DNA of 64,000 nucleotides from Spirochaetia bacterium (GCA_963677925.2 CAXXYH010000003.1:1-64000); one strand, 5' to 3'. Positions 5,352-62,902 are shown, counted from the stretch's first letter. Program-made: numbers and translations. Notes: a model not told the origin generated them from the sequence alone.

Positions 5352-6542
5352 ATGCTTACCAGATTAAACAAGAAGAATGGCGATGAACTTTCAATCCTGG
5401 GATTCGGCTGTATGCGTTTTCCCATGAAGGGCAACAGTATAGATGAAGAGAAAACTACATCACTTATAAGAACTGCAATTGAAAAGGGAATTAACTACTT
5501 TGACACTGCTTATCCGTATCATGGCGGAAAAAGCGAAGTAATGCTAGGAAAGGCGCTTGAGGGCGGTTACAGAGAAAGAGTAATGATTGCAGATAAGCTG
5601 CCTCATTATCTTGTCGGGAGCCTGGAACGGGCTAAAAAGATTTTTGATACACAGCTTGCAAGACTCAATACTGACTATATCGATTACTATCTTATTCATA
5701 TGCTTTCTGACTGTACCGGTTTTGAACGGCTTGAGAAACTTGGTGTAATGTCCTGGCTTGAAGATTTAAAAAAGAATGGCATAATTAAGAATCTTGGATT
5801 TTCTTTCCACGGCAGTAAAAAAGATTTTGAAGAGCTTGTGAGTGCATATCCATGGGATCTATGCCAGATTCAGTATAATTATCTAGATGAGAATAACCAG
5901 GCTACAAGATCCGGACTGGAACTTGCCCATTCCCTGGGACTGCCTGTTATCATAATGGAGCCCCTTCGGGGAGGACAGCTCGTGAATAATCTGCCTAAAG
6001 AGGTTATTAAGGAGTTCGGGAACTATAAGATTAATAGAAGTCCTGCAGAATGGTCGCTTCGCTGGATATGGAACCATCCTGAAGTAACTCTTATTCTTTC
6101 CGGAATGAATGAGTTCAGCCAGCTTGATGAAAATATTGCGACTGCATCAACGGCTGAGTCAGGTTCTCTAACACCTGAGGAAATGAAGATTTATGACAGG
6201 GTAAAAAAGATTATCCTTGAAAAAACCAAGGTTCCCTGTACAGGCTGCGCATACTGCATGCCCTGTCCTGCAGGTGTTAATATTCCCCAATGTTTTACAG
6301 CCTATAATGATAAGTATTTGCTGGGAGCACGCGGCATCCGATTCAATTATATGATGAATCTCGGAGGAGGCGCAAAGAAACCTGCATTTGCTTCATTGTG
6401 TATTGAATGCGGCAAATGTGAAAAGCATTGTCCCCAGCATATTGAAATTAGAAAGGAACTCAAGAGCGTTAAGAAGGAACTTGAAGGTCCCTTCTTTAAG
6501 CCGGTTGTGGCGATTGCACGAAAGGTGATGAAGGTAGGCTGA
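5352..6542 (+). CDS. Aldo/keto reductase with C-terminal 4Fe-4S dicluster domain
   Basis: LGFGCMRFP, YFDTAYPY, CTGCAYCMPCP and CIECGKCEKHCP motifs. Start moved to ATG 5352 after GGAG. Confidence 0.9.
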   Translation: MLTRLNKKNGDELSILGFGCMRFPMKGNSIDEEKTTSLIRTAIEKGINYFDTAYPYHGGKSEVMLGKALEGGYRERVMIADKLPHYLVGSLERAKKIFDTQLARLNTDYIDYYLIHMLSDCTGFERLEKLGVMSWLEDLKKNGIIKNLGFSFHGSKKDFEELVSAYPWDLCQIQYNYLDENNQATRSGLELAHSLGLPVIIMEPLRGGQLVNNLPKEVIKEFGNYKINRSPAEWSLRWIWNHPEVTLILSGMNEFSQLDENIATASTAESGSLTPEEMKIYDRVKKIILEKTKVPCTGCAYCMPCPAGVNIPQCFTAYNDKYLLGARGIRFNYMMNLGGGAKKPAFASLCIECGKCEKHCPQHIEIRKELKSVKKELEGPFFKPVVAIARKVMKVG

Positions 6543-7700: not shown

Positions 7701-9185
7701 TTAGAAAATCGGCCTGACCGATGGATATATTTTTTTGTAAGTCTGAAATTTCTCTTTATAAATGCTGTTCATATTTTCATCCGGATAAAATACATTTTTC
7801 TTTTTAACAAGATGATTTACAGCTTCTTCGGTACTGCCGTATATTCCCGCAGCAGTTCCGGCAAGGATGGCTACACCAAGTGTTCCGGCTTCTGAGATCT
7901 CAAGCGTAGAAACCTCCCGCCCCATAATGTCTGCCTTGATTTGGAGAAATGTATCCGATTTGGAAAGACCGCCGACAGCGCGCAGTTCGTTCACTCGTAT
8001 TCCTGCGTCATCAAGCCTTTCAACATTTACCATTATCTCATAAGTAATGCCTTCAAGGATTGCACGTAAAATTTCTTCGGGCTTGGTATTGATAGTCAGA
8101 CCGACTATTGCCCCCCTGGAACCGGTATCCATATATGGCGTTGCCGCTCCCGCAAAATGTGGAAGAATAAAAATATTTGACGGAGTCTTTGCTGCAGCGT
8201 CAATAAGATTACCATAGCTTTGATTTGATGAATTGCTGTGAAGTTTACCGAAATAATCGCGGTACCATTTAAGGACACTTCCGCTGGTAAAGGTGAAGGC
8301 ATAGGTTACGTACATGTCTCTAACAACATGAGGAACACAGGCAAAACTGCTTTCGGCTGTTTTTGTAGAAATTACCGGACGATTAAAGGCCGGAGTAATG
8401 CATTCTGTGGACCCCAGTCCGTCTACTGCAAGATCGCTTCGGATAACTCCTGCACCGAGTGCAGCGCACGGCTGGTCATGTCCGCCAGCTACAAGTCTGG
8501 TATTCGTAGGAAGGCCAAGTTCCGAGGTTATTTTTTTTGATATGGAGCCTACTACAGTTCCACTCTGAACAGGTGTTCCGAAAATTTCAGTTTTAACATC
8601 TGCGCAGTTAAGAATATCAGAAGACCATTCTTTATTTATAATATCAAAGGCCTGGGTTCGTCCGCCCAGTGAATAATCCATATGAGGATCTGCACCCAGC
8701 CTGAACAGAATAAAATCGGCAAAGGCCATAAATTTCCAAGTCTGTTTATATGTTTCAGGAAGATGTTTTTTTATCCACATGATTTTACTTATAGAAAACA
8801 TGGAATGTGCCGGAACCCCGGTTATCGCCTGTATTTTTTCATCTCCGAGAGCTGAACTTAGAAATTCAGCTTCCTCCTGTCCGCGCTTATCAATATAAAT
8901 TATTGCATTATGCAGAACCCTGCCGTCATTTCCGACCGGAATAGCTGCTTCTCCGAAAGATGATACACTTACTGCAACTACAGGATCTGAACTGCATCTT
9001 GAAATTGATTCAGAAATAACTGCTTTAACAGATTTCCATACGGTTTCAGGATCAAGTTCTTCAAGGCCGGGGCCGGGATTTATTAAATGATATTCCCGAT
9101 GTGCCTGTCCCAGTACAGCTCCTTCATAATCTACTATTGTAGCTTTGCATCCTGATGTTCCTATATCAAGTCCGAGAAGAGACAT
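7701..9185 (-). CDS. FGGY-family carbohydrate kinase (xylulokinase-like)
   Basis: LGLDIGTSGCK, GGHDQPCAALGAG, AVGGLSKS motifs. Confidence 0.9.
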   Translation of the reverse strand: MSLLGLDIGTSGCKATIVDYEGAVLGQAHREYHLINPGPGLEELDPETVWKSVKAVISESISRCSSDPVVAVSVSSFGEAAIPVGNDGRVLHNAIIYIDKRGQEEAEFLSSALGDEKIQAITGVPAHSMFSISKIMWIKKHLPETYKQTWKFMAFADFILFRLGADPHMDYSLGGRTQAFDIINKEWSSDILNCADVKTEIFGTPVQSGTVVGSISKKITSELGLPTNTRLVAGGHDQPCAALGAGVIRSDLAVDGLGSTECITPAFNRPVISTKTAESSFACVPHVVRDMYVTYAFTFTSGSVLKWYRDYFGKLHSNSSNQSYGNLIDAAAKTPSNIFILPHFAGAATPYMDTGSRGAIVGLTINTKPEEILRAILEGITYEIMVNVERLDDAGIRVNELRAVGGLSKSDTFLQIKADIMGREVSTLEISEAGTLGVAILAGTAAGIYGSTEEAVNHLVKKKNVFYPDENMNSIYKEKFQTYKKIYPSVRPIF

Positions 9186-50925: not shown

Positions 50926-51543
50926 TTACCATTTATTAAACAAAATATGTTTGTCTATATCTAATTTCTTCTGTGGAATTTCTTTAATTTCACTTTTTTT
51001 ATACCCAATTGGTATTATTGAAGCTACTTCAAAGTTATCTGGAATGCCTAATATATTTTTTACAGCTCCTGTATTTTTTGGAATGAATGTTACACCAAAA
51101 ATATTTTTTTCAGTCAATGAAAGTAATAAATTTTCAATTGCACACCAAATAGAAGCAAATCCATTAATATCATAAACTCTTACAGCTTCTTTAATATTTG
51201 TTTTTGGTTTATATACTGCAACAATTGATAAAGGAGCTTCAAGAATCATTCTTTTTTGTTTTGGAATTGCATCAAAATACATTTTTCTTGCAATTGGATC
51301 ATGATCTTTAAACGATACTTTCATTTCTTCTGTTATTCTTTCATACATTTCTTCTGTTTGAGTAAGTTTGACCTTTTGTTTTTCATCATCAATTATTAGA
51401 AAGTACCATTTTTTTAAATGATCATATGTTGGTGCCATAAAAGCATTTTTGATTGCATCTTTTACTTCATCAATATCTAATGCTTGATCTGAGAAATCTC
51501 TTATTGTTCGTCTGTTTATGATTACCTGTTTAAAATCCATCAT
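50926..51543 (-). CDS. Nitroreductase family protein
   Basis: RRTIRDF, AP..W.F, AIENLLL, IPIGY. Confidence 0.85.
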   Translation of the reverse strand: MMDFKQVIINRRTIRDFSDQALDIDEVKDAIKNAFMAPTYDHLKKWYFLIIDDEKQKVKLTQTEEMYERITEEMKVSFKDHDPIARKMYFDAIPKQKRMILEAPLSIVAVYKPKTNIKEAVRVYDINGFASIWCAIENLLLSLTEKNIFGVTFIPKNTGAVKNILGIPDNFEVASIIPIGYKKSEIKEIPQKKLDIDKHILFNKW

Positions 51544-51613
51544 AGTTCCCCAATTATTTTAAAGACTATCAGTTTTACTTGTTTTCTCGTCTTATTTATT
51601 TTACTATTTTTTT

Positions 51614-51734
51614 GCAGCCTGACGGTTGCAGTCTTCGATGCATGGCGCAGTTCTGGAACGCAGTATGAACAGCCTGGAGTGTCTCTGCCAGAACTGTAAC
51701 AAAGGTGTTGACGACTCTAAATCTCTTGTTATCA
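51614..51734. repeat. attC-like repeat 1 (left end eroded)
   Basis: CAGTTCTGG...CCAGAACTG...AAATCTCTTGTTAT present; AAC core missing. Confidence 0.8.
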
Positions 51735-51773
51735 AGAGCTTTTCTCTTAATATCTTATTTCTCTTTCTTAATT

Positions 51774-52220
51774 TCACGATTTCTCTTTTTCCCATTCCAT
51801 TATGTATTCTGATTCTTCAGTATCATTATCAATTATATCTGAAATTATTTTAAATCCATTGTTTTTATAAAAATTTATACTTTTCAAATTCTTTTTATAT
51901 ACTTTCAATTGTATTCTATCTCGTATTTCTTTTACGTAATTTATTAATTCACTACCAATTCCTAAACCTTGCATTTCTGTTTTTATAAAGATTGCTGCGA
52001 GATATTCATCTATCATTGAAATAAATCCCATAAGCGTATTTTCATTTTTAGCAACGTAAGTTTCTGAAATTGGAATATATTTTTCTTTCATTAACGATTT
52101 ATTCTCTTTCCAATAATTATCCGTAATGAAATCATGTGCTTTTATTGATACCTCATACCAGATTTCAATTATTTCATCTAAATCATTATCACTTAATTTT
52201 TGTATTCTTATATTTTTCAA
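51774..52220 (-). CDS. GNAT acetyltransferase (cassette)
   Basis: AHDFI...W, QGLGIGSELI, NLKSINFY. Confidence 0.9.
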   Translation of the reverse strand: MKNIRIQKLSDNDLDEIIEIWYEVSIKAHDFITDNYWKENKSLMKEKYIPISETYVAKNENTLMGFISMIDEYLAAIFIKTEMQGLGIGSELINYVKEIRDRIQLKVYKKNLKSINFYKNNGFKIISDIIDNDTEESEYIMEWEKEKS

Positions 52221-52345
52221 ACTATTCCCTCATGCAGTCTTTTTCATTTAAGAAGTCTCTATTCGCCGCCCTAATGCTCGCTTCCATCTGAATATCTAAC
52301 ATTGATATTTACATATATATAATATTTAAATCAAAAAATTTAGCT

Positions 52346-52483
52346 ATATAACGACGATTTGAGTAGCGAAACCGGCCAAGTCTTCGAGGCTTGGCACAGT
52401 TCTGGAACGTAGCGCGATCAGCGCGGAGTGTCACCGCCAGAACTGTGACAAAGATTTTGACTACTACAAAATTCTAGTTATCT
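52346..52483. repeat. attC-like repeat 2 (138 bp)
   Basis: ATATAAC-GACGATTTGAGTAG...CTACTACAAAATTCTA-GTTATCT. Confidence 0.9.
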
Positions 52484-52581
52484 GCTGTTGTAAATAATAA
52501 TTAATGGAGTATATAGATCAGCATACCTCCATATTTTATTCTTAATAATATTAATATAATATTTAAATAAAACTTAAACTC

Positions 52582-53229
52582 CTACCTTTCTATTTCTATA
52601 AGTTCAAAGATTTCTACTGGATTTTGTTTAAATTCAACTTTTATTGAATCTACAGAACGTCTAATAAAATATTTCTCCAATTCTTTTTCTACATATTCTG
52701 ATATTAAAATTTGAGTTTGGTACATCATATTAGATTGAGATAATCTATAACTTAAATTAACTGCATCACCTAAGACACTAAAGAATAATCTTGATTCAGT
52801 CCCTATGTTTCCAACACTTACAAAACCGCTATTGATTCCTATGACAATTGGAATAACTAAATCTTCATTATTAATTTCATCTTGTCCTTTTTTAATTTCT
52901 ATTGCAGTAATACATGCATCATCATAGTGATTTCCTCCATTTAATCCAAAAACTGCCATTATAGTATCACCTGATAGATTTATAATTTCTCCATTATTTT
53001 TTTCTATTATTTCAAAAGTATTTTTTATATAAGTATTCAAGGCATGTGTTAGACTAAACGGATTTAAATTTTCAGAAAGAAAATCCATCGATAAAACATC
53101 AACAACCAATATGGTTAAATTTTCATCGTTAAAACCTATATTACATATAGACTTTTCACCTTTTTGTATTTGATTATAAATATAATTACCAACAAATTTT
53201 TTGAATGATTCTGTTTTTTTCTTAAACAC
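52582..53229 (-). CDS. Stand-alone class III nucleotide cyclase (cassette)
   Basis: VVD, SGDTIMAVFG, GINSG..VGNIG, VLGDAVNLSYRL. Confidence 0.8.
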   Translation of the reverse strand: MFKKKTESFKKFVGNYIYNQIQKGEKSICNIGFNDENLTILVVDVLSMDFLSENLNPFSLTHALNTYIKNTFEIIEKNNGEIINLSGDTIMAVFGLNGGNHYDDACITAIEIKKGQDEINNEDLVIPIVIGINSGFVSVGNIGTESRLFFSVLGDAVNLSYRLSQSNMMYQTQILISEYVEKELEKYFIRRSVDSIKVEFKQNPVEIFELIEIER

Positions 53230-53390
53230 AACATTAACTCCTATATTTAACTTCTATATATAAACATTTAAAACAATTTGTACTCTTTCAACATTATTTG
53301 TCTGCAATAAGTAATTATAGAATTTCTATAATATTCTATTACATATTAAACCAAATATAATAGTTCTTAAATTTTTATCACTCTTCGTGC

Positions 53391-53419
53391 ATATAACTAC
53401 TCCAAATCTCTTGTTAAAT
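53391..53419. repeat. Collapsed attC-like repeat (29 bp, internal deletion)
   Basis: ATATAAC joined directly to TACTCCAAATCTCTT-GTTAAAT. Confidence 0.8.
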
Positions 53420-53500
53420 GCTTACACCCAACTTACCCAAATCATAAAATAAAAATTTGGCGCAGCCCGATGAGTTTATAGCGACGAGCAAATAACTCCT

Positions 53501-54133
53501 GTTATAGGCAGTAAGCGCCTCTTTGATTACATTTAGAGAGGCACGGATGCCGAACGGAAAGCTTTCTTCTTAATTTTTCTTCTCAACAACATTTGTAATC
53601 GACAAGTCTGAATTGATTCTGCTCTCAGAAATAATTCCAATTAAATCTTCTTCTCTCCACCATTTCTTCATATCCTCTTCACCAAAATCAGAACTAACTG
53701 ATTTCGATTTATGTCGTAGTAATGTCTCTTTAAAAGATAAATCATAATAATATGCAAATATTTCAGAGTCAAATTCTTCAATTGCTGTTTTAAATAATCT
53801 AAGATAATAATCGGAGTATAAAATTCCTTCCAAAATTACAAATTCCGAATTCCTCTTCCCATATTTAATTAATTCCTCTAAAAGCGGAATTGCCTCATTT
53901 TCAATTCTATCATGGACCCACAACATCTCTCTTCTAACATAATCCTGAGAAACAAGCATTGTATTACGGCCGAATTTTCGTTGTAAAGATTTAGCTAGTG
54001 AAGTTTTCCCACTTCCTGAATTACCTCTAATTATTATCAACTTTGACATCTACTTTATACATTCCTCTTAGAATCCGACACGGATGGCGGATTTCCTTCT
54101 TCTCGAAAAAACTTGGCGCTTATTGCCTATAAC
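53501..54133. repeat. 19-bp inverted repeat pair with GTT/AAC cores bounding a nested cassette
   Basis: GTTATAGGCAGTAAGCGCC (53501-19) and GGCGCTTATTGCCTATAAC (54115-33), one mismatch. Confidence 0.8.
53570..54049 (-). CDS. P-loop (AAA/kinase) family protein (cassette)
   Basis: IIRGNSGSGKT, SQDYVRR, ILEGI. Confidence 0.85.
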   Translation of the reverse strand: MSKLIIIRGNSGSGKTSLAKSLQRKFGRNTMLVSQDYVRREMLWVHDRIENEAIPLLEELIKYGKRNSEFVILEGILYSDYYLRLFKTAIEEFDSEIFAYYYDLSFKETLLRHKSKSVSSDFGEEDMKKWWREEDLIGIISESRINSDLSITNVVEKKN

Positions 54134-54215
54134 GTCCCGGGAATATAAGACGTTTTTATTTTTCTCATTGATTCTAACACACCCGAGGGTATCCCGAAAC
54201 TGAAAAATCCCGTGT

Positions 54216-54351
54216 ATTTAACGATGATTTGAGCTGCCTGGTGGCGCGAATCTTCGAGCGCATTGACATGATTCTGGAGTGCGGCGATCAGTCGAACGTC
54301 TCTGCAAGAATCATGACAATAACCATGACTGCTCCAATTTTCATGTTATAC
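54216..54351. repeat. attC-like repeat 3 (136 bp, divergent variant)
   Basis: ATTTAAC...CATGATTCT/AGAATCATG stem...GTTATAC. Confidence 0.85.
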
Positions 54352-54460
54352 GGAAATTAGAGCTTTATTTTTTTGCGGTATATATCAAAAAAGCGGTTTA
54401 ACTATGTATTTACTCTACTTAAAAATTTGCTGGAGCATTCTTTGAATTTTAATTTCTAAA

Positions 54461-54715
54461 TCAATAATGAAATCTACAAGATATAATCTTAATTATTTCA
54501 TCATCTACCTCATATACAATTCTATGTTCTTGATCTATTCTCCTGGACCAACAACCCTGCAATTGATATTTTAGAGGTTCAGGTTTTCCAATTCCTTCGA
54601 AAGGGTCCCTTGTTATTTCTTTAATTAATTCATTAATTCTTCTTAAATTCTTTTTGTCATTTTTTTGCCAATACAAGTAATCATCCCATGATTCGGGAGT
54701 AAATAGTATATTCAT
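54461..54715 (-). CDS. yoeB: Txe/YoeB toxin
   Basis: WDDYLYWQ, GIGKPEPLK, WSRRIDQEHRIVY, CRFHY. Confidence 0.95.
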   Translation of the reverse strand: MNILFTPESWDDYLYWQKNDKKNLRRINELIKEITRDPFEGIGKPEPLKYQLQGCWSRRIDQEHRIVYEVDDEIIKIISCRFHY

Positions 54716-54966
54716 TCTTCGATTAATTCTTTTCTAAGTGTATTACCGGATCGGGCTGAATGTAATGATTTCATGAGATGTTCAGCATTTTTTTCAGATG
54801 ATAATAAGTATTGTGTTTCTGTAAGACTATTGTAGTCATCAAGAGAAATCATAACCAAATTCTCATTATTCTTGCGAGTTATAATCAAAGGTTCATGATC
54901 TTGGTAAACTTGTTCCATTCGAGCCTTTAAATTTCTTCTTAAATCGGTATAATTTATCGCATTCAT
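54712..54966 (-). CDS. yefM: Phd/YefM antitoxin
   Basis: YTDLRRNL, PLIITR, MISLDDYNSLTETQYLL. Confidence 0.95.
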   Translation of the reverse strand: MNAINYTDLRRNLKARMEQVYQDHEPLIITRKNNENLVMISLDDYNSLTETQYLLSSEKNAEHLMKSLHSARSGNTLRKELIEE

Positions 54967-54967
54967 A

Positions 54968-55001
54968 TGTACAATATAACGTACCTATTTGTGTACGTCA
55001 A
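54968..55001 (-). promoter_or_regulatory. TA promoter with GTAC operator repeats; transcript probably leaderless
   Basis: TTGACG-17-TATATT; TGTACA/CGTACC/TGTACG; only 6 nt between the -10 and the ATG, and no SD. Confidence 0.65.
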
Positions 55002-55099
55002 TCTATTTCTATTGATTTTCACAAAGTCTAGAATTAGCAACTTTTGAAACAATTATTACGGGATATCTTAAGATATATATTTATCCATATCAAAATTCC

Positions 55100-55238
55100 G
55101 TATAACGACCAGTTCAGCAGCTTAGCGGCGTGTGTTTTCACACGCATTGGCGAGGTTCTGGAGTGTAGCGCATCAGCGCGAAACGTCTCAGCCAGAACTG
55201 TGACAATAGCCAGGACAGTTCCAAAACCCTTGTTAAAT
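55100..55238. repeat. attC-like repeat 4 (139 bp)
   Basis: GTATAAC...GCGTGTG-TTTT-CACACGC...GTTAAAT. Confidence 0.85.
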
Positions 55239-55390
55239 GCTATTACCCATATAATCCTAAATTAACAAAAATATATATAACGAAGAATAGAGTATAATTA
55301 ACGAAACATATCATCATAGAACGCAGATTTAATTGGACTTCCAAGACCCTCCAAAAGCTAAATCCGGATTACCATCTATATTTAAAATTT

Positions 55391-56392
55391 TCATCTCCAT
55401 TTTTCATTTTTTAGTTTTGCTGCTAATTCTTGAGAGTTTTTACAATCTATTGCAATATCCCAAAAATATCTTTTAGATTGCTGCATACCACCGCTTGATA
55501 TTTTAAAAAAAGATGTCTCAAATGGTTTCTCCAATAAAAAAACCTGTAAATCCACGGTTTTATTTTCTTCTACTCTCCAATCCCATTTTCGTATCATATT
55601 TTTTGCTTCTATAATCAATATTTCATCTTCAACGTTCACATTTTTCCATTTTATTCTTCCATCACTAATTTCTTTTTCAATAACTACTAAAGCTTTAATT
55701 TCGAAAATTTGATTTATTGATTTATTTAAATACGGCCCGAAGTATTTAGCTCTTCTATGACTATATGCACCACCTGTATCTGGACACATATAAACATTTT
55801 CATCAATCTCTTCATAAGTTCCTGTACAATTTACAACATCTAGCAAATATTTCCACTTTGGTAACAGATCATTTCGTTCTAAATATGTCTTGAATTCATC
55901 CAATAGATTTTGTAAATCTAAAGTATTACATGCTCCTTCCAATGCTCCCACAAAGTCTTCAAAACTAAGTGGTTGGATTATTATATTTTCTGATTTGGCA
56001 GATTGTATTGCTTCATGAAATCTAATCTCTATATTTTGATCTTCAAAATTAGATAATAATATTAGTATTTTTATTTCAGATTTATTATCAAAGCTTGTAA
56101 TGTGTCTTCGAATTTGTTCTTCATAAAACCAATCACTTAATTTTGTTTCAAAGAAAATTGAAAAAGATCGTTGTGTGATTGCTAAATCCGGAATACTTTT
56201 TCTTTGTTTAGTTTGTTGTTGAAATCTGGTTCCTACTATTAAATTTATTTCGTTTGGTAAAATTGTTGTTAAAATCTCCTCAAAATTTTTTGGACTGTTT
56301 TCATAAATCGTCTTCATCATTAAACCACAATAATTAGTTAAACTATTTTCTCTTTGATGATAATCTGAAAAAATCGATATTTCTCTACTCAT
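55391..56392 (-). CDS. Hypothetical protein with PD-(D/E)XK-like nuclease motif (cassette)
   Basis: ENSLT, IPDLAI...FFETKL, EQIRRH. Confidence 0.6.
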   Translation of the reverse strand: MSREISIFSDYHQRENSLTNYCGLMMKTIYENSPKNFEEILTTILPNEINLIVGTRFQQQTKQRKSIPDLAITQRSFSIFFETKLSDWFYEEQIRRHITSFDNKSEIKILILLSNFEDQNIEIRFHEAIQSAKSENIIIQPLSFEDFVGALEGACNTLDLQNLLDEFKTYLERNDLLPKWKYLLDVVNCTGTYEEIDENVYMCPDTGGAYSHRRAKYFGPYLNKSINQIFEIKALVVIEKEISDGRIKWKNVNVEDEILIIEAKNMIRKWDWRVEENKTVDLQVFLLEKPFETSFFKISSGGMQQSKRYFWDIAIDCKNSQELAAKLKNEKWR

Positions 56393-56575
56393 TTTTATTT
56401 CCTATTTCTATAAAACTATGTTGTTTATTTGTACCATTTTCCTTTTTTATCAATTGACCAAAGGTTAAGAATCTCCATCTTTATGAGCTAAATTAAGCTA
56501 ATGTTCCAAGTTTATCAATTTTTATTGTAACACCACTTACTCTTGCTTCCCTATTGAAAATGAAAATTTCTTGAC

Positions 56576-56712
56576 ATTTAACGACGATTTGAGTAGCGAA
56601 ACCGGCCGAGTCTTCGAGGCTTGGCGCAGTTCTGGAACGCAGCGCGATCAGCGCGAAACGTCTCAGCCAGAACCTTGATAATAGCCAAGACAGTTGCAAC
56701 CGTTTGTTCTAC
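56576..56712. repeat. attC-like repeat 5 (137 bp, chimeric arms)
   Basis: Left half matches repeats 7/8; right half resembles repeat 4. Confidence 0.85.
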
Positions 56713-56721
56713 AGACTTATA

Positions 56722-56982
56722 TTATTGATAATGTGTCCACATTCTTAATATTTTTACAATCTGTTCGTCATAAAGAACTTGGTATACAAGTCTATGCTGG
56801 ATATTTATACGTCTTGAATAAGCGCCAGTTAAATCTCCAATTAATTTTTCATATGGGGGTGGATTTTGAAATGGATCTATTTTAATTATCTCTAATAATT
56901 CTTGAGTTTTTCTTTTAAGATTACTTTCTGAAAGTTTTTTTGCATCTTTTTTAGCTTGCTTAGTATAGAGTAATCGATACAT
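56722..56982 (-). CDS. Txe/YoeB-family toxin
   Basis: PFQNPPPYEKL.GDL.GAYSRRINIQHRLVY, MWTHY. Confidence 0.95.
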   Translation of the reverse strand: MYRLLYTKQAKKDAKKLSESNLKRKTQELLEIIKIDPFQNPPPYEKLIGDLTGAYSRRINIQHRLVYQVLYDEQIVKILRMWTHYQ

Positions 56983-57225
56983 TTACCAATCCAGATTTTC
57001 TTCTAAATCATTAATTGGTGTATTCAATCCATCAACTATTGATTCTCTCATTCCAGGAATAGACATTAAATAAAGTGTTTCTTCTATACTCTTCCAATCA
57101 TCTTCTCCGATTAAAACCGCAGAGCTGTTTTTTCCGGTTATATGAATAGGCTCATGTGATAAATTGACTGATTCAACAATTCTGTAAAGGTCTTTTCTAG
57201 CATTAGTGATGTTTATAGAACTCAT
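56983..57225 (-). CDS. Phd/YefM-family antitoxin
   Basis: TNARKDLY, ETLYLMSIPGMRESI. Confidence 0.95.
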   Translation of the reverse strand: MSSINITNARKDLYRIVESVNLSHEPIHITGKNSSAVLIGEDDWKSIEETLYLMSIPGMRESIVDGLNTPINDLEENLDW

Positions 57226-57254
57226 AGATCCTCCGTACGTTAAAACGCACGTAT

Positions 57255-57283
57255 AATATACTATATAAATCTATTATTGTCTA
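57255..57283 (-). promoter_or_regulatory. Promoter of the second TA cassette
   Basis: TAGACA-17-TATATT, followed by CGTGCG/CGTACG repeats and GGAGG. Confidence 0.6.
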
Positions 57284-57412
57284 TTTAAAAATTATAGCTA
57301 AAAACCAAACCTAAACTGGAGGTTTATCCACCCAGAGTCTGGCTTCCAGTGGTCCGTTAACCTTAATTACCCATAATTTTTTGATTGTTGTTGTAAGAAA
57401 CTAATTTGTTCT

Positions 57413-57548
57413 GTAGAACGACGATTTGAGTAGCAAAATTGATCGGCGTCTTCGCCGAATTGGCGCGATTCTGGAGTGAGCGATCAGCGAGCGTCTTTAG
57501 CCAGAATCGTGACAATAAATTTTGACTACTCCAAATCTCTTGTTATAT
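57413..57548. repeat. attC-like repeat 6 (136 bp)
   Basis: GTAGAAC...TCGGCG-TCTT-CGCCGA...GTTATAT; overlaps the stop codon of the next gene. Confidence 0.9.
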
Positions 57549-59003
57549 GGATTTTTTTAAAATCACTGTTTTATCCAATTCATCCTCGATAAATCTATTT
57601 TCGAAACATTCAAACTCTTGCATAATTTGCATAAATTCAATTCCTTTAACATGCCCCTCACTATATTGCCTTTCAATTTTTTCTATTATTATTTTTTCAA
57701 ATAATTCTTGATCATTGTTAAGTATCTGTATCAAAATCTCAAATTCTTCTATATTAATCATAAATGCATTATGAAAATTACAATCATCATCATTCGAGAT
57801 CTTCTCTAATCTCTCTTTTATTACTCCGTCAGCTAAAAAAATATCATCAAAATATAGAACCAGCTTAATTATCTCTATTTCTTTATCTAAAGTTTGCTCA
57901 GTTCTAGATAATTGCTTGACAGCTTTTATATATTCTTTAAAAACGTAATCTATTTTTTCAAGATCAAAAATTATATCTTTTTCTGATATGTTAAACATCT
58001 TAAATTTTTGTTCAATTAATAATATATATTTCTGTGAATTAACTATCAAATCAGCTCGTTTCTGCTTTTTATCTTCTTTTAATCTTTCAAATTTAATATT
58101 AAATTTCTTTAGGATTTTATCAACATATTTTTCAAAGCGCATCCCTAAGTGTTGATTGATTTCTTTACCATAACTCTTTTTATATTTTTCTCGTGTATAC
58201 CAATATATAAACCCCAAACATTTATTAGCATATATAAATGAATTTAGAATCTTATATTCATCTTTACCAATTTCTATAATAGGAGTTACAAACATTTGCT
58301 TTTGATTTAAAGTTGATTTCCTAAAACAACTATAATCTGTAGCAAACTTCCTTATAATATCATGAAGTAAACTACTATTTTTTCCATATAGCAGGAACTG
58401 TTTATCTAATGCAATTGGGAATTTAATAATTGTTCCTCTTTGAGCCATTATCATTAACACAAAAGATGCAAGAACGACATTGCTAAATTCAACCTTAAAT
58501 TCATCTTCGATTATCGATTGGAGATTCACATTATCATTATAATTATCAGTTAACAATAAATTGAATCTTACAAACTTATTTATCATTCGGTACCCTTCTT
58601 GATACCAAAATGTTTTCTGCATTAAACCAAATAGGATATAGAAAAACATACTTTCATCATCAAACTGTTTACTTTCTCTATCTTTTTTAGATATTTCATC
58701 ATCGAAACCAAGAAATAATCCATATAAATTCATGAATTCATGTTCTGTAATTTTACGTGTTGATAATTCATTAGTATATTTTATTGCATAATATGAAATA
58801 TCCGCTAAATTCCAAGGAGTCAGGAAAGACGACCCCTTTTTAATTAGAATATTACTTTCACTTGATGTTTTCTCAAAAAGATGAAATCGGACTACTGGTT
58901 CATCATTCATCCATAATTTCATTGATAATGATGAAGAAATTTCCAAAATACTACTTAGTTTATAGTTTTTTATTTCTCTAATAAATCTGTAATTCTCAAA
59001 CAA
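57543..59003 (-). CDS. Hypothetical protein with C-terminal NERD/PD-(D/E)XK-like motif (cassette)
   Basis: GMRFEKYV...RADLIV...LLIEQK...KAVKQL; TAA lies inside the repeat core. Confidence 0.6.
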   Translation of the reverse strand: MFENYRFIREIKNYKLSSILEISSSLSMKLWMNDEPVVRFHLFEKTSSESNILIKKGSSFLTPWNLADISYYAIKYTNELSTRKITEHEFMNLYGLFLGFDDEISKKDRESKQFDDESMFFYILFGLMQKTFWYQEGYRMINKFVRFNLLLTDNYNDNVNLQSIIEDEFKVEFSNVVLASFVLMIMAQRGTIIKFPIALDKQFLLYGKNSSLLHDIIRKFATDYSCFRKSTLNQKQMFVTPIIEIGKDEYKILNSFIYANKCLGFIYWYTREKYKKSYGKEINQHLGMRFEKYVDKILKKFNIKFERLKEDKKQKRADLIVNSQKYILLIEQKFKMFNISEKDIIFDLEKIDYVFKEYIKAVKQLSRTEQTLDKEIEIIKLVLYFDDIFLADGVIKERLEKISNDDDCNFHNAFMINIEEFEILIQILNNDQELFEKIIIEKIERQYSEGHVKGIEFMQIMQEFECFENRFIEDELDKTVILKKSI

Positions 59004-59027
59004 CTATTTTTTCCTATTCTTAATTCC

Positions 59028-59166
59028 ATATAACGACGATTTGAGTAGCGAAACCGGCCGAGTCTTCGAGGCTTGGCGCAGTTCTGGAACGTAGCGCGAT
59101 CAGCGCGGAGTGTCTTTAGCCAGAACTGTGACAAAGGTTTTGACTACTCCAAATCTCTTGTTATAT
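59028..59166. repeat. attC-like repeat 7 (139 bp)
   Basis: Consensus copy, nearly identical to repeat 8. Confidence 0.95.
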
Positions 59167-60330
59167 GGATTTATTCTCTTTCTCTAATTCATGCTCCTCT
59201 AAATTAGATATCTTAAAAATAATATAAGTATATAGGACAAAGAATACATACCTAATTACAAACAGTATTATGAACCTTATAAGATTATTACTTATAATCA
59301 TCAATATATTTGTACTATCCAAAGTTATTGATCTCAGAAAATAGTCAATTACAACATTGACTCCTAAAAAGATAATATTATATTTTAAGAGACTGGATAA
59401 ATTCCTTACTATGAAATCGATTGTATTTAATAAAGCTATTTTTAATTTTTCATTATAAATACTGATTCTAATTAATAATACCGGAACTAAGAAACCAAAC
59501 ACTATTTTTATAAAAGAAATTAATGTTATATATTTATTAAACAAATCTTTATCTATATAAAACCCTACAGAGAATATAAAACTAGTTAGTACAATTATAA
59601 AGAATATTGAGATATTGTTTTCAATACTAAAAGTGATTATCTCTTTATTATCACATTTTATATCCTTAAAATAGTTTATCAGACAAGTAAATACGTATCT
59701 ATAAAATATTGAAGCTATATAAGATATCAAAATAGTTTGCAAAATCATTATTACTTTTTCAATATTGCGTATTTCAAAATTATCATAAAAAATAGCTAAT
59801 AATATTAATAACAATACAAGTGCAGCAAATACCGTATAAATAATATATATTTCTTTTATTTTACTTCTTTTTATTCCTTTTCCTACTCTTATTATATATA
59901 TAAATAAGGCTATTATCATTATAAACATAATTGTATTGTAAAAATTAAATAGGGAAATAGTACTATATAAATATTTACCAAGGTTTTGGTAAAGAAAAAT
60001 TATAATATTTTTTAAATCTAACAAATCGTTTGCACTTTTAAATATTAACCCATTATCACCTTTATAATATTTTACATAATTCATTAGATTTGGAATCTGA
60101 ATAGCTTCAATCACTATCTTAGTAACAACAGGGATAATAAAAAATAAGATCCAATTTTTAGACATGCTATTCTTACAAAGATCAATTATATTTCTTCTAT
60201 CTAAAATATTCTTATCTTCAATATTTCTATTATTATCATTCTTTATTCTCATTAGAATTATAAAACATAATACAGCTATGAAAGATGTGATTAATAGATC
60301 GTAGTTTATCTCCATTTTCATTGCTCCCAT
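59161..60330 (-). CDS. Hypothetical polytopic membrane protein (cassette)
   Basis: Long, very AT-rich ORF with ~9 TM segments; TAA lies inside the repeat core. Confidence 0.7.
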   Translation of the reverse strand: MGAMKMEINYDLLITSFIAVLCFIILMRIKNDNNRNIEDKNILDRRNIIDLCKNSMSKNWILFFIIPVVTKIVIEAIQIPNLMNYVKYYKGDNGLIFKSANDLLDLKNIIIFLYQNLGKYLYSTISLFNFYNTIMFIMIIALFIYIIRVGKGIKRSKIKEIYIIYTVFAALVLLLILLAIFYDNFEIRNIEKVIMILQTILISYIASIFYRYVFTCLINYFKDIKCDNKEIITFSIENNISIFFIIVLTSFIFSVGFYIDKDLFNKYITLISFIKIVFGFLVPVLLIRISIYNEKLKIALLNTIDFIVRNLSSLLKYNIIFLGVNVVIDYFLRSITLDSTNILMIISNNLIRFIILFVIRYVFFVLYTYIIFKISNLEEHELEKENKSI

Positions 60331-60374
60331 ATTATCATATTCATACTAAATTTAGTAATATCTCTCAGAATTCC

Positions 60375-60513
60375 ATATAACGACGATTTGAGTAGCGAAA
60401 CCGGCCGAGTCTTCGAGGCTTGGCGCAGTTCTGGAACGCAGCGCGATTAGCGCAGAGTGTCTTTAGCCAGAACTGTGACAAAGGTTTTGACTACTCCAAA
60501 TCTCTTGTTATGT
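60375..60513. repeat. attC-like repeat 8 (139 bp)
   Basis: ATATAAC...GTTATGT. Confidence 0.95.
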
Positions 60514-60586
60514 TGTATTTTGTTTTTCTATTCTTTTTATATTTTCATTATTTTGTTCCAAGGTTCTTATTTTTCATAATTAAAAT

Positions 60587-61387
60587 TTATAAATCTATAA
60601 TATCCATTTTATATTCTACTGTGCTAGGAATAGCTTTATAGTAATCAATCTGACAATTTTTTTCTTTAAATACATTTTTTATCAAATCGATATTATCAAT
60701 TTTTGTTTTATCTCCAAATATTATTCCACATAATTTTCTCGGATTGTAAGTAATTTTCTGCTTTGAATTTGAAAACTTATCATAGATAACCGCACGCCAC
60801 TCTTGCTCATATTTCCAATTTTCATGTTTAGTATATAAATATTTTGCCATATCTTCTATATTTCGATTTAATATATTGTTTTGTACAGGCATTGTTTCAG
60901 AATAATTGATTTTTTTTATAAATATAAATCCAGGAGGAACAAGGTTAGTATGTCTCCCATTAAAATTGTGTCCTTTGAATTTAATTCCATATAAATCATT
61001 ATAATTATTTAACTCTATCTTTATACATATTCCGGAATGATTTTCTGCATAATGACTCCACATCAATGTATTATGTGGATTTTCTGTTAGAGACAATACG
61101 CTTATAGTATCATTTGCTTTTTCTATATTATTCTTATTGAATTTATCATCTAAAAGTTTGGGATTGTTCAAATACTTTATATATTCATAATATTTATTAT
61201 TAGTAGGTTTTAATTTTGTACTCCTAATATAATCTCTTTTTTCTTCATCAGTACCTTTAATATAGTAACGAATTTTACAATCGAATGGATCATTGAGTTG
61301 ACTTGGTTTAGCAAAATATAAATAACTATTTTTTAAAGAATCTAAGGTATTTTCATTAATATTATAAAATTTATATATATATTTCAT
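60587..61387 (-). CDS. DUF2971-domain protein (first cassette)
   Basis: LNDPFDC, LMWSHYAENHSGICI, KHENWKYEQEWR. Confidence 0.85.
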   Translation of the reverse strand: MKYIYKFYNINENTLDSLKNSYLYFAKPSQLNDPFDCKIRYYIKGTDEEKRDYIRSTKLKPTNNKYYEYIKYLNNPKLLDDKFNKNNIEKANDTISVLSLTENPHNTLMWSHYAENHSGICIKIELNNYNDLYGIKFKGHNFNGRHTNLVPPGFIFIKKINYSETMPVQNNILNRNIEDMAKYLYTKHENWKYEQEWRAVIYDKFSNSKQKITYNPRKLCGIIFGDKTKIDNIDLIKNVFKEKNCQIDYYKAIPSTVEYKMDIIDL

Positions 61388-61536
61388 TTTCTAAATATTC
61401 CTTCTCCAATTCTTTTTTTAAATCGGAACTCAACATATTAAACAACTGCAGTTCAGTTTGGCCTTCTTATTTGATTCTGCTTGGAAACTAATCTATTAGA
61501 AAATTGTATATCCAGATAGTAAACTATTCCCTATAT

Positions 61537-61553
61537 CAACATAACGACGATTT
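61537..61553. other. Array-terminal half site (attI-like site or truncated attC)
   Basis: CAACATAAC-GACGATTT: core plus 8 nt of the repeat arm, complementary to GTTATGTTG at 60507. Confidence 0.7.
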
Positions 61554-61701
61554 AAACGCAGCCCATGGAAGAAGTTGTTGAAAAAGTAGGGTAAACCCTT
61601 ACCCAATAACACTTTACTCCTCTGTAAGGTTCTATCTAATACTAAACCAAAATGGCCGTGTATGCAGCTATGATAGCATTTCGGCCGCATAAGGAGTTTT
61701 T

Positions 61702-62856
61702 ATGCGTTACAGAGAACCTTTTACACTCTATCTCAGGAAGTTACCCTCGGGTAAGAAGATTTGGTATTATCAAACATACGATATGAACAACAAACGGACA
61801 AGCGCCTTTTCTACAGGTAAGAAATCTAAAACTGCAGCAAAAGCTTATTGTTTTGATTTACTGAAAAAAGATTTATTGATTCCGGTAAGACTGAGCAAAA
61901 TCACTTTTAAAAAATATTCTGAAAACTGGTGGCTATGGGATAAATGTGAATACTTGAATTATCTCAAAAAGAGAAAGACGATTTCAAGATCATATGCGAA
62001 GACCGCCCGGGTTATGCTTGGCAAGCATATACTACCGTATTTTGGAAAGCTGCAGTTGAGAGAAATAAGGTCATACGATATTGAGAAATGGCTGGATACA
62101 TTTGCTGTTAAGGGTCTGGCGAATGCAACGGCAAATCTCGGATTGGCTTTTTTGAAGATCATGTTCAAGGAAGCTGTAAGACGTGAGATTATATTTGAGG
62201 ATTCTTCAAGCTCAATCATGCCGCTTAAAACGGAAGCGGTAGTTCGCGGGGTCCTCTCCCAGGATGAAGTCTCAAAGCTTTTTAATCCTGAGAATAAAAA
62301 ACAAATATGGTCAAATGATATTTATTATTACGCAAATTTGTTGTCAGCCTGCACGGGCATGAGGCTTGGTGAAATACTCGCGGTTCGTGGGGAAGTACTG
62401 AAAGATAATTATATCATCGTTGACAAGCAGTATACTAAGAGCTTCGGGCTAACGGATACGAAGACTCATCATTCGAGAAAGGTAATAATTCCAGAAACAT
62501 TGATGGCCGAGGTTCTGAATTACTCGGAACAAAATAACGGCGGATATATATTTTCAATAGACGGCGGGAAGCAGCCGGTTTATCCGGACACTATGCGCCG
62601 AGCATTATTTAAAGCACTTGGGAATATTGGAATTGATGATGAACAAAGACGTGAACGAAACATATGCTTTCACAGTTGGAGGCATTACCTGAACACTACC
62701 CTAAGAAGCAACAACATCACCGACGGCAAGCTCAGAGCGCTGGTCGGACATTCATCTTCCAGGATGACCGAACACTACACCCATTTTGATACTGAGGATT
62801 TCAAGGACATTCAGGAGATCCAGAACAAGATAATAAACTTTAAAAAAGTAGTATGA
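61702..62856 (+). CDS. Tyrosine recombinase/integrase (phage-integrase architecture, not IntI)
   Basis: TGMRLGE (R), TKT (K), HSWRH, VGH...HY; N-terminal arm- and SAM-like domains; AAGGAG RBS. Confidence 0.95.
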   Translation: MRYREPFTLYLRKLPSGKKIWYYQTYDMNNKRTSAFSTGKKSKTAAKAYCFDLLKKDLLIPVRLSKITFKKYSENWWLWDKCEYLNYLKKRKTISRSYAKTARVMLGKHILPYFGKLQLREIRSYDIEKWLDTFAVKGLANATANLGLAFLKIMFKEAVRREIIFEDSSSSIMPLKTEAVVRGVLSQDEVSKLFNPENKKQIWSNDIYYYANLLSACTGMRLGEILAVRGEVLKDNYIIVDKQYTKSFGLTDTKTHHSRKVIIPETLMAEVLNYSEQNNGGYIFSIDGGKQPVYPDTMRRALFKALGNIGIDDEQRRERNICFHSWRHYLNTTLRSNNITDGKLRALVGHSSSRMTEHYTHFDTEDFKDIQEIQNKIINFKKVV

Positions 62857-62864
62857 GTCAATTC

Positions 62865-62902
62865 GAAACTGGTAAATAGCAAAGTCTACCAGTTTCATTT
62901 TT
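62865..62902 (+). terminator. Intrinsic terminator-like hairpin after the recombinase
   Basis: GAAACTGGTA-N12-TACCAGTTTC-ATTTTT. Confidence 0.6.

Follow-up and report, generated by a model that had tools for sequence, protein, structure and literature searches.

Chromosomal integrons with lineage-specific attC sites are known from the Spirochaetes, as set out in parts of two surveys (Cury et al. 2016, PMC4889954; Ghaly et al. 2021, PMC8352920). One section of the former also counts tyrosine recombinases that lie near attC sites and lack the domain specific to the integron integrase (IntI), 29 of them in genomes encoding an IntI elsewhere in the replicon (PMC4889954). Elements that target attC sites are likewise on record, namely the IS1111-attC insertion sequences and the group IIC-attC introns (PMC3001079). 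Here, we describe an attC array and an adjoining 384-aa tyrosine recombinase in the first 64,000 nt (the window, i.e., the whole stretch analyzed) of contig C3 of a Spirochaetia bacterium (GCA_963677925.2, CAXXYH010000003.1:1-64000), the 5.04-Mb genome of which is assembled in 4 contigs (C3 and C4 among them). We consider it probable, at roughly 85%, that the array is the far end of an integron and that the recombinase is the integrase of an island inserted in one of its attC sites. The recombinase belongs to the class found near attCs without the IntI domain, with an IntI elsewhere in the replicon; the survey of Cury et al. appears to regard such enzymes as something other than integron integrases. 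Arrays of this kind are already known. For islands that carry a tyrosine integrase and target attC sites, no description was found in the literature searched, the coverage of which was incomplete and did not extend to supplements.

Repeat finding, together with an nhmmer profile built from the copies, revealed eight copies of a 133–139-nt repeat in the window, uniform in orientation. These repeats (type T1) start with ATAAC and end with GTTAT (i.e., AAC...GTT ends), with the arm at the side of the stop codon of the open reading frame (ORF; the R''-L'' arm) being 2 nt longer than its partner. The copies form long, imperfectly paired hairpins and fold much more stably than shuffled sequences. 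With the genes as the reference, the copy at 59026–59166 reaches −31.2 kcal/mol on the bottom (+) strand (z −5.74, 0 of 200 shuffles as good), compared to −23.7 kcal/mol on the top strand (z −3.36). The repeats show the anatomy of integron attC sites and form a cluster of co-oriented hairpins, one after each cassette, with all of the cassette ORFs on the minus strand. An initial annotation, made from the sequence alone, had noted the cassettes, the repeats, a half site and a recombinase other than IntI, and all four proved real by repeat search, profile, folding and ORF analysis. Its count of eight minus-strand cassettes holds if an AAA-kinase and a cyclase unit, parted by a remnant alone, are merged; otherwise, there are nine. 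It had also described the two repeats nearest the recombinase as almost identical and the distal ones as eroded, as expected if cassettes were added at this end. The two (59028 and 60375) are indeed 98% alike; the gradient is not seen, with near-consensus attCs (at least 147 bits) found over the whole 75 kb of the array (59028, 60375, 83471, 87359, 93082, 95098, 96330, 116465, 117774, 120955, and 126643). Given that near-consensus copies occur all along the array, the likeness of the two recombinase-side copies is uninformative as to the end at which cassettes enter.

Searching the entire 5.04-Mb genome with the eight-copy profile gave 42 matches, comprising 38 on C3 and 4 on C4, with no T1 copies outside these two contigs. 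The 38 sites on C3 span 51612–126780, all in one orientation and spaced 0.5–3.9 kb apart, with a sole large gap from 60512 to 83471. A genome search with TIGR02249, the integron-integrase model (cut-off of 265 bits), returned one match above the cut-off (C3:128526–129455, 382.9 bits). The corresponding ORF (C3:128199–129458, + strand) scores 382.5 bits on the model over positions 5–315 of 315 in a single stretch, and its product has the extra segment of a true IntI, with ALSSKYTNASKSWIWFWVFP present where the 384-aa recombinase has a gap; we take this segment to be the IntI motif near patch III. The intI gene on the + strand and the cassettes on the − strand are divergent, as in classical integrons. 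Upstream of the first cassette ORF, at a distance of 70 nt (~C3:127,512), there is a GTTAGGT-type box, seen by sequence in this genome alone, which is a candidate attI. Because attCs continue on C3 to a true IntI, the window array is part of one integron, and the segment 51612–61553 constitutes the 10 kb at the distal end of a sedentary chromosomal integron that measures ~78 kb (C3:51612–129458), not an orphan. The layout that we propose would place intI and the candidate attI 66 kb to the right of the window array, with minus-strand cassettes running leftwards to 51612. Operationally, the window segment does pass as a cluster of attC sites lacking an integron-integrase (CALIN; at least two attCs with no IntI nearby), with the nearest IntI at that distance and across a 23-kb gap; despite this CALIN-like appearance, it is biologically part of a complete integron.

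The gap itself is occupied by an island. At its left edge, the 13-nt outer arm of an attC (ATAACGACGATTT, 61541–61553) stands as a half site, the last base of which is 148 nt before the ATG of the recombinase gene at 61702. Within this arm lies the core of the left attachment junction, attL, at 61542–61553 on the + strand (TAACGACGATTT), which corresponds by sequence and in-silico joining to the L'-R' arm of a split attC. The same TAACGACGATTT recurs at C3:83474–83485, forming a 12-bp direct repeat that flanks the island, and to the right of this second copy the attC proceeds normally. The island (C3:61542–83485; 21,932 bp between cores) begins with the 384-aa recombinase. Its removal in silico yields a full-length attC (148.5 bits, profile positions 4–139), equal to the best intact copies, while the reciprocal attP junction, formed by joining the island ends, gives zero attC matches with the profile, and the 141 nt around 61541–61553 at the left junction show no folding (z −0.08). 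An integrase at the end, a flanking repeat and a target restored on removal identify this segment as an integrative island. We also considered the truncated attC at 51612 and the half site at 61542 as halves of one site; this was dropped, the partner of the half site being at 83474. A tRNA gene was excluded as the island target, no tRNA gene being present in the 64-kb window.

Both ends of the island carry arms. The left arm (61554–61701, + strand), which consists of the attL arm and the region upstream of the integrase gene, is conserved by alignment in four island copies. A 13-nt sequence in this arm, TATGATAGCATTT (61669–61681), has a second copy in the right arm (C3:83339), with a distance to the core of ~120 nt in both arms, and the right arm further contains three GGAATT motifs. 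Judging by their sequence, this repeat and the motifs are candidate arm-type sites. An HTH_17 protein of the excisionase/AlpA type (Xis-like) is encoded at C3:64220–64471.

The recombinase gene (61702–62856, + strand) was characterized using Pfam, TIGR02249, alignment and a family profile. The protein matches PF00589 at 53.9 bits and TIGR02249 at just 44 bits, compared to the cut-off of 265, and is 26% identical to the C3 IntI over 221 columns, with gaps at the IntI extra segment. When compared with solved structures, a profile of 47 homologues scored best against Tn1549 Int (74.8 bits) and lambda Int (60.9 bits), with VchIntIA at 25 bits. A small tree separates the island integrases from the IntI/Xer group by a branch with a length of 4.4 changes per column. 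Scoring below the cut-off and with the insertion gapped, the 384-aa protein is not an IntI, and its sequence characteristics assign it to the lambda/Tn1549 type. Several points in the initial annotation are settled by these data. The recombinase is intact and divergent from the cassettes and lacks the IntI insertion, as had been stated; the half site upstream of it is present, at a distance to the ATG of 148 nt and not 157; and the true intI that was suggested as a target for a genome search exists at C3:128199–129458. The annotation had alternatively proposed an orphan array hit by an unrelated integrase element, of which the hit by an integrase element stands; the array is not a CALIN, and the element is not unrelated, given that its core is an attC arm.

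To place the island in a wider context, 19 homologue loci were inspected, with the attCs of other lineages recognized by eye and with the profile from this genome. The names borne by homologous proteins in their sources assign the lineage to the Spirochaetia. The junction falls at an attC arm of the own host in 8 of the 19 loci, each with a different flanking cassette, and 3 of these 8 lie inside arrays ending at an IntI. The positive loci belong to two supported clades of the tree (99/99 and 99/98), with none in the third clade. One of them is from a genome of the same family and another genus (G007, one contig), with an integrase 85% identical to that in the window. The 52 attCs of this genome run from 4417886 to 4524339 and end at an IntI of 392.3 bits, and their one gap (4448012 to 4477446) opens with the integrase homologue. 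The junction sequences are ACA-TAACGACGATTT-GAACGCAGCCC on the left and GCGGTT-TAACGACGTTTT-GAGTAGCG on the right, with an A/T mismatch inside the repeat that places strand exchange within TAACGACG. The window and G007 islands have in common the integrase, the Xis region, a 1.8-kb block, a GC-rich patch and ~135 nt of the right arm, whereas their cargo differs and their flanking cassettes are unrelated. Two more copies of the island, with integrases of 74% and 82% identity (the latter with a stop codon), occur in genome G004 and share the same junction with different left flanks. Such different left flanks indicate separate insertions, because the left cassette is un-excisable by IntI once its upstream attC has been split. 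In the same G004 genome, the IntI was matched as two overlapping pieces (210.8 and 155.4 bits), a sequence pattern which suggests that this intI is frameshifted.

A second family of islands, with integrases 46–49% identical, contributes four loci (G071, G312, G287:C117, and G044) that abut TAACATCC, the first eight bases of the attC arms in that lineage according to several nearby attC-like hairpins. The G312 island lies inside an array, where attC-like repeats flank it on either side and an IntI (381.7 bits) is found at a distance of 24 kb. Because attC-arm junctions recur among the homologue loci, some of them inside IntI-ended arrays, the sequences point to a family of lambda/Tn1549-type integrase islands that uses integron attC sites as the attachment site.

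Taken together with the arms, the junctions suggest how such an island may enter. Integration would proceed via conservative site-specific recombination between the attP of the island and the double-stranded L'-R' arm of one attC, with the attP core being a likely copy of the host arm (the shared core TAACGACGATTT in the window). The crossover would take place inside TAACGACG, a sequence present in 28 of the 42 attCs of this genome, and would overlap the GTT box where IntI cuts; the left junction would thereby retain 12 nt of the attC and the right junction the remainder. The island integrase would presumably catalyze the reaction on double-stranded DNA, with attC arms as its preferred target, and the HTH_17 Xis-like protein would direct excision.

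Several observations weigh against an attC-specific island integrase. The compared genomes are relatives, meaning that the locus counts are not independent trials. The initial annotation had asked whether close homologues also abut arrays of this repeat, and beyond the eight loci described above the outcome is less favorable: the G005 island abuts the opposite end of an attC-like repeat (its integrase and that of G009 are 61% identical), and an attC arm was unrecognized in 10 of the 19 loci (G009, four of G133/G152, G232, G354, two of G287, and L036). Hence, either an attC target is not a property of the whole family, or the attCs of those hosts went unrecognized. In the second family, the left junctions alone were read, and the candidate right junction in G071 is a 17-nt repeat 36.6 kb away that leads into half an attC-like sequence. 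An empty site was not found, with neither flanking cassette located beside an intact attC in five related genomes; DNA of the left-flank cassette was absent from all five, and the right-flank cassette gave just a 62-nt match in one. The N-terminal arm-binding-like domain initially attributed to the 384-aa recombinase is also unconfirmed, since Pfam gave no match to PF24624 (Int_N, arm-binding) in this protein, with matches in 7 of 47 aligned homologues.

Pattern scans added little to these comparisons. The junction pattern TAACGACGATTTRAACGCAGC matched 3 stretches in 2 Spirochaetia metagenome-assembled genome records among genome contigs, none of them a new junction, and a looser pattern matched one stretch among metagenome contigs, a chance match in a GC-rich ABC-transporter-like gene. 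No free attP junction was seen in either the genome-contig or the metagenome-contig scans, and a locus search with a single protein returned one partial locus with attC absent upstream.

We weighed three other explanations, each of which is less likely than insertion of an island by its own integrase. In the first, IntI itself inserted the island, which would have been circular and have offered a secondary GTT site for recombination with an attC in folded form, making the island a giant pseudo-cassette. IntI is known to use secondary sites, and the crossover region here overlaps the R' box (…CGTCG|TTA…), the IntI cleavage point; the identity between the partners, however, reaches 9 nt on the non-exchanged side of G|TT, which is unneeded by IntI, whereas lambda-type integrases need an identical overlap. 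An IntI origin would also leave aside the ~135–150 nt conserved arms with repeated motifs, the integrase and the Xis-like gene at the island ends, as well as the way in which the core tracks the host attC arm in the second island lineage (TAACATCC), and the island is without an attC hairpin of its own. We grant this explanation a small chance.

Very little probability attaches to the second explanation, in which there is no preference for attCs and the pattern reflects either one old inherited insertion in an attC or a 12-bp match that is an AT-rich coincidence. That the carrier genomes are relatives and that 10 of the 19 homologue loci are without an attC arm would fit such a history. The four junctions of the first island family, however, have four different left-flank cassettes, two of them in one genome, as expected of separate insertions, and the second clade behaves alike with a different, host-matched core. 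Furthermore, attCs account for ~6 kb of the 5.04-Mb genome (42 × ~139 nt), and repeated chance landing at the same repeat position is therefore very unlikely, a judgment drawn from these proportions and not a computed test. The last explanation, cassette capture at the 61542 site by the 384-aa recombinase as the array's own non-IntI integrase, which had been put forward initially on account of a geometry resembling intI-attI-array and the 98% likeness of the two nearest attCs, is barely credible and already fails, given that this site is 12 nt of an attC arm split by the island with the remainder 21.9 kb off (in-silico excision restores the attC), that the array extends past the island to the true IntI at its head, that near-identical attCs occur throughout the array, and that elsewhere the recombinase accompanies conserved island arms and variable non-cassette cargo.

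The cargo of the island, inserted by its own integrase in the reading that we prefer, includes defense systems. Within the window, the integrase gene is followed by an HD-domain protein gene (PF13328; 63470–64000, − strand, extending to C3:64015). Further to the right, an AEP-TOTE primase-helicase and a 1517-aa ATPase (a TOTE-like system) adjoin a type I restriction-modification operon (hsdR, hsdS, and hsdM; C3:72413–80079), with a Fic/DOC protein and a 360-aa protein between hsdR and hsdS that form the PADLOC candidate pair PDC-M59B (1.1e-36) and PDC-M59A (6.9e-105). Other island genes encode a metallophosphoesterase, a 189-aa protein, and a 160-aa protein. The island also contains a 0.6-kb non-coding patch (C3:82100–82700) with 50–60% G+C, compared to ~30% in the surroundings. 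This GC-rich patch is restricted to island-bearing genomes (4 copies in 3 of 11 family genomes), and RNAalifold on the four copies predicted 132 pairs, 17 of which show compensatory changes. The patch matched no Rfam family, whether the gathering threshold was applied or E values as high as 1 were allowed; the modeled fold makes it a candidate large structured RNA.

The cassettes of the window segment, all on the minus strand as are the attC coordinates given below, can be followed from the distal end. The integron ends in a truncated T1 attC (51612–51733), which by nhmmer and sequence is without the L'-R' arm (profile positions 17–138 only) and adjoins a nitroreductase gene (Pfam; 50926–51543). 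The first cassette from this end encodes a 148-aa GNAT acetyltransferase (51774–52220; PF13508/PF00583) and is followed by a T1 attC at 52346–52483 (142.9 bits) and a cassette for a 215-aa class III nucleotidyl cyclase (52582–53229; PF00211), which is PycC-like (PADLOC PycC, 1.3e-14). This cyclase is a lone gene, with an effector gene absent from the same cassette, and its neighboring boundary is the degraded one. That remnant boundary (53391–53509, repeat family D2) consists of a 38-nt R''-L'' arm of a T1 attC (53391–53428) followed by the left half of an attC of a second type, T2 (53455–53509, by T2 profile match). Beyond it lie a cassette for a 159-aa P-loop kinase-like protein (53570–54049; PF13671) and a T1 attC at 54216–54351 (105.4 bits; fold). 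After this attC, we noted by eye a T2 right end at 54137–54215, which accounts for the 20-nt inverted repeat around the kinase cassette (53503–53522 and 54117–54136).

The remaining units alternate with full T1 sites. A toxin-antitoxin cassette at 54461–54966 (YefM/Phd antitoxin, 54712–54966; YoeB toxin, 54461–54715; PF02604 and PF06769) is bounded by an attC at 55100–55238 (119 bits), and a 333-aa protein without a family match in Pfam or PADLOC (55391–56392) by one at 56576–56708 (133.3 bits). A second toxin-antitoxin cassette (56722–57225) pairs, by Pfam, a Phd/YefM antitoxin (56983–57225) with a YoeB/ParE-like toxin (56722–56982), with the next attC at 57413–57548 (112.1 bits). Two further proteins have no family match in the same databases, namely a 486-aa protein (57543–59003), followed by the near-consensus attC at 59028–59166 (152.5 bits; fold), and a 389-aa protein that is hydrophobic by eye (59161–60330), followed by the near-consensus attC at 60375–60512 (147.7 bits). 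The cassette adjoining the island encodes a 266-aa DUF2971 protein (60587–61387; PF11185), which belongs to the PADLOC candidate defense family PDC-S31 (1.1e-45).

A second cassette platform is found outside the window, at C4:1138043–1163452 of the same genome (G000; loci L013 and L087). It includes a 357-aa IntI/Xer-like recombinase (C4:1138043–1139116) with the same SAM_4 and PF00589 domains as IntI. The 357-aa protein lacks the ~40-aa insertion of IntI; the two are 30% identical over 332 columns, with gaps in 42 columns, the largest of which (31 aa) is at the IntI extra segment, and the C-terminus of the 357-aa protein is IntI-like (...YTHV...SPLDGL). Its match to TIGR02249 (194 bits) is broken into two stretches, with model positions 181–234 left out, and its score on NF040815 is 232.5 bits. 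The gene occurs once in each of 9 among 10 other genomes of the family and is 96% identical between G000 and a sister species, G001. Homology between these two genomes ends 64–68 nt past the stop codon of the gene, at ...TTCTGAG|TT, and resumes after 24.3 kb in G000 and 31.4 kb in G001. Between these flanks lie 22 (G000) and 36 (G001) copies of the ~105-nt attC-like T2 repeat (TAACAGGGGCTATGTG...CACATAACCCCGGGACGTTAT), with cassettes that are mostly different, the few shared ones being changed in order. T2 repeats follow the orthologous 357-aa gene in all five genomes examined.

The C3 integron contains 38 T1 and 5 T2 matches (1 full-length) and the G007 integron 52 T1 and 0 T2, compared to 22 T2 and 4 T1 sites in the C4 array. 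Each T1 site in the latter is nested in the apex of a T2 site; at C4:1142519–1142854 and three similar sites, a T2 left half, an A/T-rich stem, a T1 and a T2 right half make up a ~340-nt composite. The window positions 53391–53509 and 54137–54215 are remnants of such T1/T2 nesting. Many T2 cassettes open with the same ~70-nt leader after G|TT (...GCAAT..CCCGACAAGAGGAAGACGCCCGGACCTCCGGCCGACGGGCGAAGAG), which includes a GC hairpin (families D5 and D9), as at L013:4184–4247 (C4:1139184–1139247), 5880–5940, and 7840–7901; this leader forms a 5′ module common to cassettes that are unrelated in other respects. A tentative and somewhat doubtful proposal is that the insertion-less 357-aa enzyme, and not IntI, inserts the T2 cassettes, with T1 being paired with IntI and T2 with the insertion-less enzyme; cassette capture by a recombinase without the IntI insertion, as raised in the initial annotation, would then hold in this genome at a locus other than the one annotated. 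An IntI or pieces of one occur in every searched genome with the 357-aa gene, the three exceptions being G003, G023, and G009 (where the 357-aa gene itself was not found), and this co-occurrence makes the two enzymes inseparable by distribution. If the proposal is true, three tyrosine recombinases would operate on one attC pool in this genome, counting the attC-targeting islands. An array beside an insertion-less IntI relative also bears on the origin of integron integrases from Xer-like enzymes.

With regard to annotation, a tyrosine recombinase other than IntI next to clustered attCs mimics a new gene-capture system, where the locus in question is an integron cut by an island. By a 4-kb clustering rule for attCs, the window segment would be called a CALIN beside a tyrosine recombinase, and distance-based clustering would call a CALIN and a complete integron here. 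Our findings suggest that whole lambda-type integrase islands have specialized on attCs, with a core that follows the attC sequence of the host lineage. Targeting attCs offers an island many equivalent, harmless sites, and the island route brings into the integron multi-gene defense systems that are too big for cassettes. Some CALINs may arise in this way, from arrays divided by an inserted island. More speculatively, IntI could in principle move the island together with neighboring cassettes, given that the island lies between intact attCs.

Compared with sedentary chromosomal integrons of the Vibrio superintegron type, the C3 integron shares an insertion-bearing IntI divergent from the array, a candidate attI, and dozens of cassettes that point in one direction, mostly contain a single gene and terminate in an attC hairpin specific to the lineage, with toxin-antitoxin, acetyltransferase and defense-like genes among them. 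It differs from typical chromosomal integrons in its long attCs (~139 nt), in a 2R box that is not a clear RYYYAAC, in the nesting of T2 with T1 attCs at some boundaries, and in the 22-kb non-cassette island that interrupts it. The window segment alone, with 8 attCs and no IntI within 4 kb, resembles a CALIN (Cury et al. 2016); unlike a CALIN, it is continuous with a complete integron save for the island, and the recombinase is tied to it by target site and not by chance.

Like the IS1111-attC elements and group IIC-attC introns (PMC3001079), the island is a selfish element that inserts, in a single orientation, at a conserved site, the attC, which is present in many copies and safe to land in. 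Those elements, however, are 1–2 kb and move by a DDE-type transposase or a retrohoming ribozyme, whereas the islands described here are 22–28 kb, rely on a tyrosine integrase, and possess attL/attR arms and defense cargo. The latter features align them with lambda and Tn1549-type systems, with which they share PF00589 catalytic and SAM-like core-binding domains (Tn1549 Int and lambda Int being the nearest solved structures), a direct repeat at the flanks, arms that are conserved and contain repeated motifs, and a neighboring excisionase-like gene of the HTH_17 type. Unlike in the lambda and Tn1549-type systems, the target here is neither a tRNA gene nor a unique gene end but a repeat present in dozens of copies, which is itself the substrate of another recombinase.

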